Shown: in pieces, positions 13,777-18,351 of the stretch
Position numbering within the stretch: position 1 is the stretch's first letter
How the letters are laid out: every line of letters begins with the position of its first letter
Source of the DNA: Pseudomonadota bacterium
GTDB lineage: Bacteria > Bdellovibrionota_F > JAHFAK01 > JBDREC01
DNA length: 20,000 bases
NCBI GenBank assembly: GCA_043820105.1
Contig: JBDREC010000039.1
Coordinates: 49,793 to 69,792 of the forward strand
Direction: 5' to 3'
The notes under the pieces: generated by a model
Told to the model about the DNA's origin: nothing
Seen by the model: only the letters and a program-made list of their open reading frames with translations
Databases searched by the model: none
Made by a program: the position numbers and the translations under genes

Positions 13777-15159
13777 TTAATTGCTTTGTAGGTCCACTAC
13801 ATAGCCAAGTGGTGAATAATCAATTGCTGAATCCACCATACCAATTACCGCTCTTGTAAGTTCAGAATCAAAGTCACCAGTGTGCTGTGAGCCGTCAGCT
13901 TCGGTTACTTTTCCTTGGCCCTGTGGCACACCACTTACAAAGGTGCCTGTCCATTGTGAGCCATCATTAAGTGTTATTGTTCCCTGGCCGTTTGGTTTGT
14001 CATCTTTGAATTGTCCTTTGTATTTTCGGCCTTCTACTAGGGTAGCTGATCCAAAACCATTGGCTCTACCATCTCTAAATTCTCCTTGATATTGTCGACC
14101 ATCGCCATATGTCAAGGTTCCTTGTCCGTGGTAAGTTCCATTCGCAAAATCTCCAGAATAAGTAAATTCTTTAACCTTAAGAACACCTTTGCCGTGTTGC
14201 TTGCCATCTCTAAACTCTCCTTCATAATAATCAAACCCATTTATTTTCATTGTTCCGTGGCCTTGCTGTAGCCCAGAACTGTCAAGCTGACCACTAAAGG
14301 TAATGTTTTTGCCAGGTTCTTCATAAATAACTTGCCCTTGGACTGAATTGAAGCCCTCTTGCCCTGCTACTTGGCCTCTATCATCATAATTTGTATAGTC
14401 TCTTCTAATTAAGCTGCCATCTTGAAAATAATATTCTGTGACTTCTTTTTTAACACCACCTGTACGTTCTGCGAAAGTTATGCGCTTTTCTTTTAATTTA
14501 CCATCTGCACTGTAGCTAAATTCATCTGTTCTAGAGCCTTTTAAAATTTCTTGGCCATCTACTAATTCATATTCACTGGCTTCTTGAGAAACAATTTTTC
14601 CATCTTTATATTTTTTTGTTGTGGCTTTTTTTAGGTTCTTGCCAAACACACCATATTCATAGTCTATTACAACATCATTTGAACCATCGTTATCTAGGTC
14701 TTTTATTTCCTGAATAGGATTACCGTTTTCATTATAAATGACAGTATGTGTACTTAGCACTTTATCGTTTTCAATTTTTCCACAAGTCTTGGAATATGTT
14801 TTATCTTCAGAGTATTCATATCCACAAATTCTATCAACAATGCCATCACCATCAAAATCTATTTCTTCTTCTAAAATTCTTCCATTTCGATCCTTATAAA
14901 CTTTTGCTTCAGAGTCTATCCAATCACTTCCATAGGTTTCTGTGTCATGTTTTCTTATTTCAACTGCGACAAAAATGCTTGGAAGCTCTTCATCACCAAG
15001 GATAATTAGATTATCGCCAATTGCTTCAATTAACTCAACGATAATTCCCTTTTGACAGGTCTTGGTGCTTCTTTGAGTTTCTTGTGAAAAAGCGAATTGA
15101 CTCGTAAAAATTACTGATAATGCTGTAATAATTGATAACTTAAAAAATAATGCTTTCAT
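13777..15159 (-). CDS. Secreted protein with DxDxDG/YD-like repeats and C-terminal MORN repeats
   Basis: Signal peptide ending AFS-Q; DFDGDG and DLDNDG motifs; about 5-6 MORN units (YEGEFRDGKQHGKG, YSGDFANGTYHGQG, YQGEFRDGRANGFG...); SD AAGGAGG. Confidence 0.85.
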   Translation of the reverse strand: MKALFFKLSIITALSVIFTSQFAFSQETQRSTKTCQKGIIVELIEAIGDNLIILGDEELPSIFVAVEIRKHDTETYGSDWIDSEAKVYKDRNGRILEEEIDFDGDGIVDRICGYEYSEDKTYSKTCGKIENDKVLSTHTVIYNENGNPIQEIKDLDNDGSNDVVIDYEYGVFGKNLKKATTKKYKDGKIVSQEASEYELVDGQEILKGSRTDEFSYSADGKLKEKRITFAERTGGVKKEVTEYYFQDGSLIRRDYTNYDDRGQVAGQEGFNSVQGQVIYEEPGKNITFSGQLDSSGLQQGHGTMKINGFDYYEGEFRDGKQHGKGVLKVKEFTYSGDFANGTYHGQGTLTYGDGRQYQGEFRDGRANGFGSATLVEGRKYKGQFKDDKPNGQGTITLNDGSQWTGTFVSGVPQGQGKVTEADGSQHTGDFDSELTRAVIGMVDSAIDYSPLGYVVDLQSN

Positions 15160-15810: not shown

Positions 15811-15993
15811 TCGAAAAGAAAATGTATGCCCTGTTAATGTGCCATGGGACGACAGAACAAAAAGGAACATGCGCTTTTTTCAGTTTTCAGATAATAGAAT
15901 CTTCTTATTTTAATACGCTATTGAAAATTTTGGATCATCTCCAATCTGAGTACCCACAAAGAATAATTTTTCTATAAACATAACACACTATTA

Positions 15994-16050
15994 GATTAGG
16001 ATTAGGATTAAGTTTAGGATTAAGATTAAGATTAAGATTAAGATGATTAG
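15994..16050. repeat. Tandem hexamer array (GATTAR)n, left flank of the four-helix-bundle cassette
   Basis: GATTAG GATTAG GATTAA GTTTAG GATTAA GATTAA GATTAA GATTAA GAT GATTAG. Confidence 0.92.
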
Positions 16051-16385
16051 CTCATTTTATAGAGCATTCTGACGATTTGTAGGAGTTGATCTTTGAAGTA
16101 GGAATGTAGATCTTTAGAAATGAGATTAAAAGAAAAGAGAAGATCAAATACTGCTGAGCTTTCTGATGCTGAGCCAATTGCAATTTCAAAAAATCGTTTT
16201 CGTTCAGTTGAGGACTTTCGATAGACTCCTTCTGCAATATTTAGCACGATACTCGCGAGTGCTCTTTTCAACTGATCATTGAGGTAAGCATAGCCTTTTG
16301 GCATTTTTTTTGCTAAAGCCCGATTCGCTTCTTTTGATACAAATAAACTCATTTGATAACACTTAAGTTTTTCATGAATTAGCAT
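16047..16385 (-). CDS. Four helix bundle protein (23S rRNA IVP / bAvd-like family)
   Basis: HEKL.CYQ, L.DQLKRA..SIVLNIAEG, RFFEIAIGSASE signature; SD AGGAGG. Confidence 0.92.
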   Translation of the reverse strand: MLIHEKLKCYQMSLFVSKEANRALAKKMPKGYAYLNDQLKRALASIVLNIAEGVYRKSSTERKRFFEIAIGSASESSAVFDLLFSFNLISKDLHSYFKDQLLQIVRMLYKMS

Positions 16386-16391
16386 AATTAG

Positions 16392-16451
16392 TGACCTCCT
16401 AAATTAAATTGTTCTTTCATATGTGCAAGAACAATTTAATTTAGGAGGTCA
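16392..16451. repeat. Perfect 25-bp inverted repeat (10-nt loop) containing both SD sequences
   Basis: TGACCTCCTAAATTAAATTGTTCTT-tcatatgtgc-AAGAACAATTTAATTTAGGAGGTCA. Confidence 0.97.
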
Positions 16452-16453
16452 AT

Positions 16454-16804
16454 ATGTATTACTTTAGTCATGAAAAACTTAATTGTTATCAGGAGCTTAT
16501 CGCGACATAAAAAGAAGCAATCGGGCTGGCAAAAAATATGCCAAAAGGCTATGCTTACCTCGCAGACCAACTGAAAAGAGCAGCGGTTTCATCCGTTTGT
16601 AATCTAGCTGAAGGCAATAGTAAAACAAGTCTAAAAGACAGAAGACGCTTCTTTGACATCTCACTTGGCTCAATAGCTGAAATCTGCGCCTGTCTTGACC
16701 TTCTTGACTCTTTAGATCTTGACTCTTTTTCTTCTTCTTCTTTAATCTTATCTCTAAAAAAACGATACCAATCTATCTATTCCATGATCTTCAAATTGAA
16801 ATAA
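16454..16804 (+). pseudogene. Four helix bundle protein paralogue with in-frame stop
   Basis: ATG 16454 follows AGGAGG: MYYFSHEKLNCYQELIAT*KEAIGLAKNMPKGYAYLADQLKRAAVSSVCNLAEG... The TAA at 16508-16510 aligns to TCA (Ser) in the paralogue. Confidence 0.85.
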
Positions 16805-16828
16805 ATATTTCTATATATAAAATCAATG

Positions 16829-16876
16829 GATTAAGCTTAGGATTATGATTAAGATTAAAATGAGGCTTTAGATTAT
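16829..16876. repeat. Degenerate hexamer array (GATTAR)n, right flank of the cassette
   Basis: GATTAA GCTTAG GATTAT GATTAA GATTAA AATGAG GCTTTA GATTAT; same orientation as the left array. Confidence 0.8.
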
Positions 16877-18351
16877 TCAGTTCCTTCTTTATCCAAGATA
16901 CCTCTTACCGTAACAGGTGTATATGAAGATGAATCTTCAGATCCATTACCTAATTGGCCATATTCATTGCTGCCCCAGCATTTTACTGCACCGTCTCCAT
17001 TGAGAACACAAGTGGCATATCCACCGGCTGAGATACTAACTGCCTTTTCCATTGTTGCCATTGTATAGGGAGAAGATGTCTCATCGGCTGCTTCATAGCC
17101 AAGTTGTCCATGGCTATTATAACCCCAACATTGTATATTCTTATCTGAATCGAGTGCACATGAATGAGCGCTACCTGAGGCAATCATTACAATATTCTCA
17201 ACACCATCTACAGAAGCAAAATCTTCACTGAAACTAGCTTCAGTATTTCCTAATTCCCCATGTTTATTATTACCCCAGCATACTACAGAAGAATCACGGT
17301 TTAATATTCCACATGTATGTTGTCCATGGGTTGAAATGTCTGAAAATATTAAATTTGATTTTGGGCTTGCAGGAACTAGAATGGAGTTATCACTTGGATC
17401 ATCGTCAAGGTTATCTTCTCTTCCACATTGACCATATCTATTGTCTCCCCAGCACTTTAGCTTTCCATTTTCAAGCAATGCACAGCTATGATAACTGCTT
17501 GAAAAAATAAGGCTTGCATTGGACAACCTATCAACAGGTAGTGGAATAGTAGAATAAGGAATAGATGAATCATTTATACCGAGCTCACCATGGTCATTGT
17601 ATCCCCAGCATGAAGCATCTCCATCAGATAAAACAGCACAAGTAAAATAGTTCCCGGCTGAAACTGAAAGGGCGGAAGTTATTGATAAAACTTCAACTGG
17701 CGTCGAGCTATTTGTTTTTGTTCCATCACCTAGCTGGCCATAATTATTGTGTCCCCAGCAATAGACTTTTCCTGAATCAATAACAGCGCAAGTATGAGTA
17801 GAACCCGCCGAAATTTGAGTAATATTCTCGAGATCACTGCTTTCAATAGCAGTATTTTCATAATCCTTATCACTACCTCTTCCTAATTGACCGTATTGAT
17901 TTCTTCCCCAACATTTTACTTTTCCTGTTTTTAAAAGCACGCAATTGTGGGCTGATCCACTTACTAGCATTGAAATTGGATTTTCTTCTTCAACAGTTCC
18001 ATCACCATCAGCTTCGCCATCACCGTCTCCATCGCCATCACCATCGCCATCACCGTCTCCATCGCCATCACCGTCTCCATCACCGTCGCCATCGCCATCG
18101 CCGTCTCCATCACCATCGCCGTCTCCATCACCGTCGCCATCGCCATCGCCGTCTCCATCGCCATCACCTTTAACAGCATCATTGCTCTCAACAAGGTCTA
18201 TTGTTTCAGTACTAATATTCTGACTTGAAGGGGTGTCTGCTGTTAATAACACTTGCTCTGCAAGTTCTTCTTCATTTCCTGAAGAGCAGGAAAGAGCTAT
18301 TGTCAATATTGAAATTAATAAAATTAAAATTCCTAAAAAATTTACTTTCAT
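16873..18351 (-). CDS. RCC1/BLIP-II-like beta-propeller lipoprotein with poly-GD linker
   Basis: Signal peptide ending ALS-C; (GD)25 linker; seven CWG.N..G(Q/E) repeats; SD AAGGAGG. Confidence 0.9.
18016..18168 (-). repeat. Coding hexamer repeat (GGNGAY)25 encoding (GD)25
   Basis: 150 nt of Gly-Asp codon pairs with synonymous variation. Confidence 0.95.

Follow-up and report, generated by a model that had tools for sequence, protein, structure and literature searches.

The palindrome at positions 16392-16451 of the window, as the whole 20,000-nucleotide stretch of DNA analysed here is called, is best explained overall as the central hairpin of a small, conserved cassette of two head-to-head paralogous genes, L and R, and we hold this explanation with somewhat better than even confidence. 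The 60 bp between the two ribosome-binding sites would then represent two 5' leaders laid head to head. Across diverse uncultured bacteria, the 58 loci compared combine a heterotypic gene pair, a stem of about 22-25 bp, an asymmetric loop that is typically 10-13 nt long and a Shine-Dalgarno (SD) sequence on each side. The palindrome of the window is a somewhat atypical member of this conserved two-gene cassette.

The palindrome and its two genes

The features of the cassette in the window are the following.

15993-16044, no strand assigned: left word array, (AGATTA)x8.7, found by Tandem Repeats Finder (period 6, 86% matches)
16047-16385, minus strand: gene L, 'L-type', intact four-helix-bundle protein of 112 aa, Pfam PF05635 and TIGR02436
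16354-16377, no strand assigned: left member of the inverted repeat I3, with its partner at 16468-16491, from the inverted-repeat search
16392-16416, no strand assigned: left palindrome arm, minus-strand leader and SD of gene L
16417-16426, no strand assigned: asymmetric 10-nt loop TCATATGTGC, in the 'form A' orientation, which begins with TC
16427-16451, no strand assigned: right palindrome arm, leader and SD of gene R
16454-16804, plus strand: gene R, 'R-type' PF05635 paralogue, with an in-frame TAA at 16508-16510
16828-16875, no strand assigned: right word array GATTAA / GGATTAAGATTA, (GATTAA)x5, from repeat finding

As read from the sequence, the left arm, TGACCTCCTAAATTAAATTGTTCTT, has its exact reverse complement in the right arm, and the two are complementary at 25 of 25 positions around the loop. 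The SD cores, CCTCC at 16395-16399 and GGAGG at 16444-16448, both lie within the arms, 5-9 nt away from the start codons at 16385-16383 (minus strand) and 16454-16456, which bears out the description of a perfect 25-bp palindrome carrying both SD sequences that the first-pass annotation of this DNA had given. The palindrome is real and far beyond chance. There are exactly two occurrences of the arm 25-mer in the window, one on each strand, and none of 200 dinucleotide-preserving shuffles of the window had two matches to the arm, even with up to three mismatches. The RNA fold of 16380-16470 has a predicted energy of -37.8 kcal/mol versus -12.0 +/- 3.0 for the shuffles, none of which, out of 200, was equally stable (z = -8.75). 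The whole 3.81-Mb genome has just four perfect inverted repeats whose arms measure at least 25 nt and whose loops measure 3-20 nt, and two of these four are the window palindrome and its counterpart on C68 (see below).

The hairpin sits at the 5' ends of both L and R, and no site resembling an intrinsic (rho-independent) terminator was found between 15900 and 16950. At gathering thresholds, Rfam gave no match at the hairpin for the window and five related loci; in the window its only match was a tRNA at 597-670, with none to 23S rRNA, and the cassette thus lies outside rRNA genes. The approximately 20 nt directly outside the arms are scrambled by indels, and beyond them, in the 5' coding sequences, the 24-nt inverted repeat I3 is 96% complementary and encodes HEKLxCYQ in both L and R.

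The two genes point away from each other and are paralogues, with a nucleotide identity of 80% over 323 nt and a protein identity of 50-56%, so that the earlier characterization of the adjacent coding sequences as strongly diverged was right in substance. Gene L scores 72.6 bits against PF05635 (cut-off 33.8) and 65.2 bits against TIGR02436 (cut-off 24). Its reading frame is uninterrupted; that of R is not, since a TAA stands where L and the R copy on C68 have TCA, a break that the first-pass annotation had not pointed out. What remains of R is an open reading frame (ORF) of 88 aa from the ATG at 16538, which still scores 51.0 bits against PF05635. A PADLOC search returned no match for the L- or R-type proteins.

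The left word array follows directly after the stop codon of L, and similar arrays of hexamers or 12-mers are found 3' of the genes in many related loci. In the window the two flanking arrays are in direct orientation (duplex test, -48.4 kcal/mol direct versus -16.9 kcal/mol inverted). The cassette is bordered by an RCC1-like gene and a hypothetical gene, and the remainder of the window is ordinary chromosome, with an ATP synthase operon, aconitase-family genes, guanylate kinase and YicC. Among the window ORFs scanned against Pfam there was neither a recombinase gene nor a reverse transcriptase gene, and no template/variable repeat pair was seen.

Other copies in the same genome

A second head-to-head pair is located at C68:40175-40842. 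Its palindrome (40514-40538 and 40549-40573) is also perfect over 25 of 25 positions, with a 10-nt loop. The arms differ from those of the window locus (C39) at 5 of 25 positions, and each of these differences is mirrored in both arms. To judge from their L genes, with a pS of 0.59 and a dN/dS of 0.12, the two loci are old duplicates that were formerly under purifying selection. By eye, the C68 loop matches the window loop at 7 of 10 positions as its reverse complement and at 4 of 10 on the same strand. In the C68 pair, L carries a TAG and R an in-frame deletion of 24 codons. The idea that C68 represents a dead cassette with a live palindrome was weakened by dN/dS values of 0.12-0.20, which indicate that the breaks are recent.

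Two further copies lack the palindrome. C75 is a pair whose centre, palindrome included, has been deleted. C83 is a solo L gene, 96% identical to the L gene of the window, whose homology ends inside the left arm; it starts 2 nt after the stop codon of an upstream ORF and has neither an SD nor a palindrome. Its dN/dS relative to the window L gene is 0.05, the mark of strong purifying selection. Judging by this copy, kept under such selection after the loss of both palindrome and SD, L does not need the hairpin.

Head-to-head pairs in distant bacteria

The lineage of the organism is sparsely sampled, its family consisting of this genome alone and its class of four genomes. The three other genomes of the class contain no match at E <= 1e-10, and all outside comparisons are therefore drawn from distant bacteria. 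A scan of genome contigs with L led to 80 loci being kept, each at most 50% identical. Three of them (L018, L025 and L019) are head-to-head pairs: L018 and L025 have a central palindrome spanning SD to SD, and in L019 the centre has been replaced and both genes are cut at the same codon. A scan of metagenome contigs with an R-type alignment returned 79 loci, 62 of which are head-to-head pairs with both N-termini present, representing 54 distinct spacers. Among the other 17, by our reading, 12 have their match less than 130 nt from a contig end, two appear to be solo genes and three have a truncated partner. Viral contigs yielded no relative.

All 62 metagenome pairs are heterotypic, with one L-type and one R-type gene as assigned by best hit, and of the 46 pairs sequenced far enough to judge, 43 have both reading frames open. 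The R protein of the window belongs to an R-type clade (support 88/99). A tree of 105 proteins places the L protein of the window in an L-type clade of 29 tips (support 100), and in the same tree separate L (support 99) and R clades are formed by a second supergroup. In the middle third of the protein a signal of gene type extends across supergroups, with 0.62 for L-L and 0.61 for R-R versus 0.55 for L-R. The N-terminal third is most alike within a locus, with 0.639 versus 0.507 between loci of one supergroup, and in the first codons L-R identity at third positions was 0.83 within a locus versus 0.53 between loci, a difference that is confounded by shared codon bias. The N-terminal comparisons are no more than suggestive of concerted evolution. 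A similar repeat lies upstream of only one of 60 solo genes of the family, so the hairpin goes with the paired arrangement.

Shape and covariation of the hairpin

The 58 pair loci compared comprise the 54 metagenome spacers, the two loci from metagenome-assembled genomes (MAGs; L018 and L025), C39 and C68. Their spacers measure 72-91 nt, with one of 112 nt, and consist of little more than a single hairpin, in a common order: CAT, 5-9 nt, CCTCC, stem, loop, stem, GGAGG, 5-9 nt, ATG. The loop is 10-13 nt long in 55 of the 58 loci and 12 nt in 32 of them; arms are most often 23 or 24 nt long. Counted outward from the loop, the two arms are 97.0% identical over positions 1-8, 96.6% over 9-16 and 91.7% over 17-22, and further out the identity is 67.2% over 23-30 and 58.5% over 31-45. 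The identity between L and R goes up again to 83.8% in the first codons, then comes down to 61.8% by 201-300. Such a profile, with 58% near the spacer between SD and start codon and a return to 84% in the first codons, speaks against a simple conversion that spreads outward.

In the 49 loci whose arms align without gaps over at least 17 nt (the nine dropped have a bulge or mismatch near the loop), within-locus complementarity reaches 97.9% over 20 positions, and 35 of the 49 stems are perfect. Between loci, arm identity is 41.9%, as is cross-locus complementarity, and each of the 20 stem positions is occupied by at least two types of Watson-Crick pairs. In a structural alignment, which was built by means of a covariance model, is therefore fitted to the structure and includes most loci on both strands, paired cells make up 95.2% versus 56.6% after shuffling, with none of 500 shuffles as high; the covariation score is 0.926 versus 0.220, slid controls are 40-56% paired, and all 24 pairs show double-sided changes. 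Concerted evolution of the arms is shown by this comparison of sequences. The first-pass annotation had argued from the window that identical arms imply selection for pairing or active homogenisation, and the contrast of 97.9% within loci and 41.9% between them, along with the five mirrored differences out of five at C68, agrees with it. It had also named beforehand, as an outcome that would refute it, a lack of arm complementarity in homologous pairs; arm complementarity proved to be present across the related pairs.

The window hairpin is an outlier of its class in sequence, with shorter arms that are A/T-rich and continuous with the SD. The class covariance model found no match on it at E <= 0.001, and the search of its own genome was empty; the C68 hairpin scored 30.3 bits against the model (E 3.8e-4). 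In its architecture the window fits the class, with an L-type and an R-type gene head to head and a near-perfect repeat with a 10-nt loop between their SDs.

How the arms remain identical

The few unpaired cells of the stems comprise 14 of transversion type, 11 A:C and seven G:T, and there is thus no enrichment of wobble pairs. Neither strand folds consistently better: the fold favours the top strand in 30 loci, the bottom one in 28. Arm length differs between loci, and the two arms of one locus stay in register. L132 and L135, two relatives that are 93% identical, have arms of 24 and 26 nt, respectively: CTAG gives way to TTGAGC in one arm, and this length-changing replacement is mirrored by its complement in the other arm. 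Among 11 independent pairs of nearest relatives (mean coding identity 0.90), 28 differences are mirrored in both arms, a part of these being register shifts, versus five that affect one arm.

Taken together, the lack of G:T enrichment and of strand bias, the mirrored length changes and the mirrored differences make it probable that the arms are kept identical by copying from arm to arm at the DNA level. The nascent strand would fold back on itself, and one arm would serve as the template for the other, by quasipalindrome template switching or intramolecular conversion; such fold-back copying would also flip the loop and mirror indels. Quasipalindrome template switching is a known replication-linked process, in which imperfect inverted repeats are reported to be converted toward perfect ones when the nascent strand copies the other arm (PMC7202029). 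The footprints expected from quasipalindrome mutagenesis as it occurs in E. coli and yeast, namely mirrored substitutions, mirrored changes in length and loop flips, are of the kind found in the cassettes: changes mirrored in both arms are present in the C39/C68 comparison and, as a complex replacement, in the L132/L135 comparison, and loop flips occur between other related cassettes. Unlike that laboratory phenomenon, which affects arbitrary sites, the process considered here would act on one conserved element over long evolutionary time, and it is deduced from comparison.

Selection acting base pair by base pair is a less likely cause of the identity than copying at the DNA level. According to this alternative, an RNA hairpin would be preserved by selection alone through compensatory changes in the arms, with the leader, in which SD and anti-SD pair, serving as a translational switch. 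Strong covariation, the pairing of the SDs in all predicted folds and the conservation of stem length (mode 23-24 bp) and loop motif across distant loci are as expected from it. However, G:T pairs make up approximately 0.5% of stem cells and are no commoner than A:C or transversion mismatches, and 35 of 49 stems have no mismatch over 20 bp, even though stabilities of -40 to -70 kcal/mol would leave room for some. Nor does selection on an RNA readily account for a length-changing replacement that is mirrored in both arms, for the absence of a strand preference (30 versus 28) or for loops that flip, and we regard selection alone as an unlikely explanation.

The loop and its inversion

On the strand on which it starts with TC, the loop has the consensus TC(A/G)NNNGGGCGG. 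T1 and C2 are invariant, and G12 is found in 30 of the 31 twelve-nucleotide loops. The loop is strand-asymmetric, being G-rich on one strand. Relative to L and R, form A (top strand) occurs in 28 loci and form B (bottom strand) in 22, with eight unclear. L130 and L131 are 95.4% identical over 2.7 kb; the coding parts compared and the spacer are 100% identical, and the 12-nt loop is exactly reverse-complemented. The loop is likewise flipped between L122 and L123, which are 88% identical. The 11 independent close pairs comprise three with a flipped loop, six with the same orientation and two that are unclear. Given these flips among close pairs, L130/L131 and L122/L123 included, comparison indicates that loop inversion is frequent on the time scale of point substitutions. 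Inversion of the loop, which had been proposed from the window, is thus seen between related cassettes. For the window itself, contigs from three DNA runs offered low-depth pieces, one of which stops at the centre of the palindrome, and were uninformative as to loop orientation; no RNA run covering the region was listed. Recurrent flipping of short loops between inverted repeats is reported for close relatives in plastid non-coding DNA (PMC9653739, PMC6005162). These small plastid inversions resemble the present ones in that a hairpin loop flips between close relatives; they differ in that they affect organelle DNA and have neither a linked gene pair nor a conserved loop motif.

Frequent inversion raises the question of a minimal invertible switch, in which recombination between the arms would flip the 10-13-bp loop and its orientation would decide which paralogue is transcribed or translated, amounting to phase variation with no recombinase nearby. 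The two loop orientations are indeed similar in frequency (28 versus 22), flips between identical or near-identical cassettes are exact, and the loop is conserved, strand-asymmetric and G-rich on one strand. On the other hand, a recombinase gene is absent from the window, no promoter element was recognised in the loop, the two orientations are known from comparison between cassettes rather than within one strain, and any perfect hairpin can be expected to flip its loop as a side effect. We consider such a recombination switch very improbable. A related and also improbable proposal is that of a recombinase-free flip-flop in a mobile two-gene cassette, in which arm copying would keep the stem perfect, the 10-13-bp loop would invert often and its orientation would pick the paralogue to be expressed. 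The G-rich strand of the loop, possibly a standby site for ribosomes or a processing site, would be placed on one mRNA or the other.

Expression of the pair and a possible role of the hairpin

How the two genes are transcribed bears on what the hairpin might do. Between 15900 and 16950 a single sigma-70-like promoter was found, at 16796-16823, and none in the spacer, in line with the earlier remark that there is almost no room for ordinary promoters in the intergenic region. A search by eye for recurrent -35/-10 motifs or sigma-54-like -24/-12 motifs gave isolated matches, confined to single clades. No terminator was predicted between the RCC1-like gene and R in the window, where a transcript reading through from the former would be antisense to the broken R gene and would continue across the hairpin into the intact L gene. 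In the 28 loci for which the orientation of the neighbours could be called, by crude ORF calling, both neighbours point into the cassette in 12, 12 are tandem and four divergent. The latter, in which both neighbours point away, do not support, as a rule, a cassette that is always promoterless and fed by read-through. Thus, the suggestion that mRNA might arrive by read-through from the RCC1 gene holds as a possibility for the window and does not extend to a general rule: read-through is possible in most loci, this one included, and is not universal. Because of the four divergent loci, and because both genes are open in most loci, internal promoters that escape recognition are probably present.

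Internal promoters would also be part of a symmetric DNA control region, with overlapping divergent promoters and a palindromic operator that balances or auto-regulates L and R; the regulator could possibly be the nucleic-acid-binding four-helix-bundle proteins themselves. Such an arrangement would fit with the lack of room for promoters outside the palindrome, the intactness of both genes in 43 of 46 pairs, the four of 28 loci with divergent neighbours that need internal promoters, the equal constraint on both strands and the conserved loop motif. It is made doubtful by the paucity of promoters, as no sigma-70-like promoter other than that at 16796-16823 lies in 15900-16950 and no recurrent motif was apparent by eye. 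Furthermore, an operator has no need of 22-25 perfect pairs in a row, the arm sequences are only 41.9% alike between loci, and loop flips and mirrored indels are left unexplained. Its probability is low in our estimation.

An alternative that dispenses with any role holds that the palindrome is a functionless by-product: the arms would be the homologous leaders of an old inverted duplication, hairpin copying would perfect their loop-proximal part, and any effect on expression would be incidental. All of the signatures of a DNA-level process apply to it as well, the C83 copy of L works without a palindrome, and cassettes are decaying in this genome, as attested by the stop codon in R and by the L stop and R deletion at C68, while their palindromes are still perfect. 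Contrary to what it would predict, stem length and loop motif are conserved over phylum-level distances, and in most loci the perfect region has a sharp end at a common position. In addition, the arms change more slowly than synonymous sites, with 5 of 25 positions different between C39 and C68 against a pS of 0.59 in the L genes, and L130 and L131, with a difference of 4.6% across their 2.7-kb loci, have an unchanged spacer. A mere by-product appears quite unlikely to us.

The uniform stem length, the conserved loop motif, the sharp outer boundary, the slow change of the arms and the unchanged L130/L131 spacer suggest a constraint beyond copying. We therefore propose, tentatively and at less than even confidence, that the hairpin is more than a by-product and acts as a leader hairpin on transcripts that cross the centre. 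Sequestration of the SD on any transcript spanning the palindrome follows from the predicted folds of the 58 loci, in which the SDs are always paired. In a transcript running across the centre, the SD would be locked in a duplex of at least 25 bp, long enough for cleavage of the RNase III type, like the stem at the termini of rRNA intervening sequences. If cleaved or melted, the duplex would release an A-rich leader with its SD; in an RNA starting within the loop or beyond it, the A-rich leader would instead be unstructured. A regulatory role of the hairpin is plausible on these sequence-based grounds.

Relation to known systems

The closest published system is that of the ORF-bearing intervening sequences (IVS) of 23S rRNA in Coxiella burnetii and Leptospira. 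The Coxiella IVS has a 28-bp terminal stem that is cut by RNase III, and it carries a gene of the PF05635 family (PMC4990558). The two systems share the protein family (PF05635, 'S23p'), a long, near-perfect stem of approximately 25-28 bp and the character of small accessory units with a scattered distribution. In terms of length, the 25-bp stem of the window would be compatible with excision by RNase III. In contrast with the cassette, which lies outside rRNA, the IVS are inserted in helix 25 or 45 of the 23S rRNA gene; they harbor one gene instead of two diverged genes head to head, and their stem encloses the ORF, whereas that of the cassette lies between the genes and holds the ribosome sites. 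The outer repeats in the window are also direct rather than inverted. An IVS-like enclosure of each gene, by pairing of the leader arm with its own 3' word array, was considered and rejected, as the mean duplex energy for the own flank (-12.2) is close to those for the reverse-complemented arm (-12.7) and for other loci (-11.6). Inverted pairing of the outer flanks was -39.6 kcal/mol within a locus versus -35.9 kcal/mol across loci (p = 0.096), and several loci, including the window, have direct flanks.

Avd, the accessory protein of diversity-generating retroelements (DGR), also belongs to PF05635 (PMC10053308). The likeness is that of the protein family; unlike in DGR, neither a reverse transcriptase, in the window ORFs scanned, nor a template/variable repeat pair accompanies the cassette.

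In site-specific invertible promoter switches such as fimS and hin, inverted repeats flank a segment that is present in both orientations. The cassette likewise has inverted repeats around a segment found in both orientations, here by comparison across loci, but the segment is 10-13 bp long, with no nearby recombinase gene and no recognisable promoter.

No description of the paired form or of its central palindrome was found in the open-access literature, and the widespread two-gene cassette of L and R with its central hairpin is apparently undescribed. No function is known for the very large PF05635 family, which, to our knowledge, is known only from rRNA intervening sequences and from the Avd proteins of DGR. 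A conserved two-gene form with a shared hairpin provides this family with a defined and testable cis element. It is also a natural example of a bacterial palindrome of regulatory size that appears to be maintained over long evolutionary time by hairpin-templated copying.

Degenerate and Incomplete Cassettes

Within the window, gene R is broken by an in-frame TAA codon at 16508-16510, where its paralogues read TCA. Translation could restart at the ATG at 16538, which would yield an 88-aa ORF devoid of the first helix. Both genes are damaged in a second pair of the source genome (C68:40175-40842; loci L003, L011, and L017), with a TAG codon in the L-type gene and an in-frame deletion of 24 codons in the R-type gene, and the central palindrome has nevertheless remained perfect.

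The center is missing from two other cassettes, which are the following:

C75:24086-24488 (L013/L014), source genome: R-type gene, from about codon 26, joined to the 3′ part of the L-type gene
L019:1124-1785, contig of another genome: spacer replaced, with a WP[RK]G codon as the shared starting point of the two genes around it

Both losses look like palindrome-centered deletions. A solo L-type gene is also present in the source genome (C83:20055-20390; L002/L010), 96% identical to gene L of the window, and its homology to the window stops within the left palindrome arm. This copy has no Shine-Dalgarno sequence and begins 2 nt past the stop codon of a small upstream ORF, an arrangement which suggests that the two are translationally coupled.

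Genomic Neighborhood

To the right of the window pair lies a gene for an RCC1-repeat protein (16873-18351), with some 35 Gly-Asp dipeptides in a run behind a signal-like N-terminus, and farther to the left one for a MORN-repeat protein (13777-15159). The sole sigma-70-like promoter match within 15900-16950 (16796-16823, 10/12) is found at the 3′ end of gene R; it is directed at the RCC1-like gene, to which it is antisense. In a metagenome-assembled genome, a pair (L025:2030-3294) is located approximately 200 nt from a gene for 5S rRNA and the 3′ end of one for 23S rRNA; it thus adjoins an rRNA operon, outside rather than within it.

The source genome harbors other hairpins. A perfect palindrome (C90:131166-131245) has 30-nt arms composed of the 7-nt words AGCTTGT/AGCTGGT and is similar to heptamer hairpins at other sites of this genome. 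A perfect 48-bp hairpin repeat (17-nt arms, 14-nt loop) occurs in six copies, in both orientations.

Sites of the 48-bp hairpin repeat
C95:101402
C63:13409
C109:39480
C103:123214
C62:3945
C47:5424

Repeats Around Cassettes and Possible Cassette Remnants

In the metagenome loci L130 and L131, the whole pair is bracketed by a 105-nt direct repeat (672-776 and 1579-1683, 98% identical), which opens with (TTAATC)n-like hexamers. In the source genome, the final 33-55 nt of gene R, together with GATTAA-type arrays (window 16750-16875), are repeated at more than 20 places.

Example sites of the R-end/GATTAA-array repeat
C90:46667
C34:57678
C5:17248
C9:8130

These copies are flanked on each side by a further conserved piece; one of the two flanking pieces is also found at window 15925-15975. 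Contig ends coincide with several of the copies. The copies look like cassette remnants that lack the genes, within a larger repeat.
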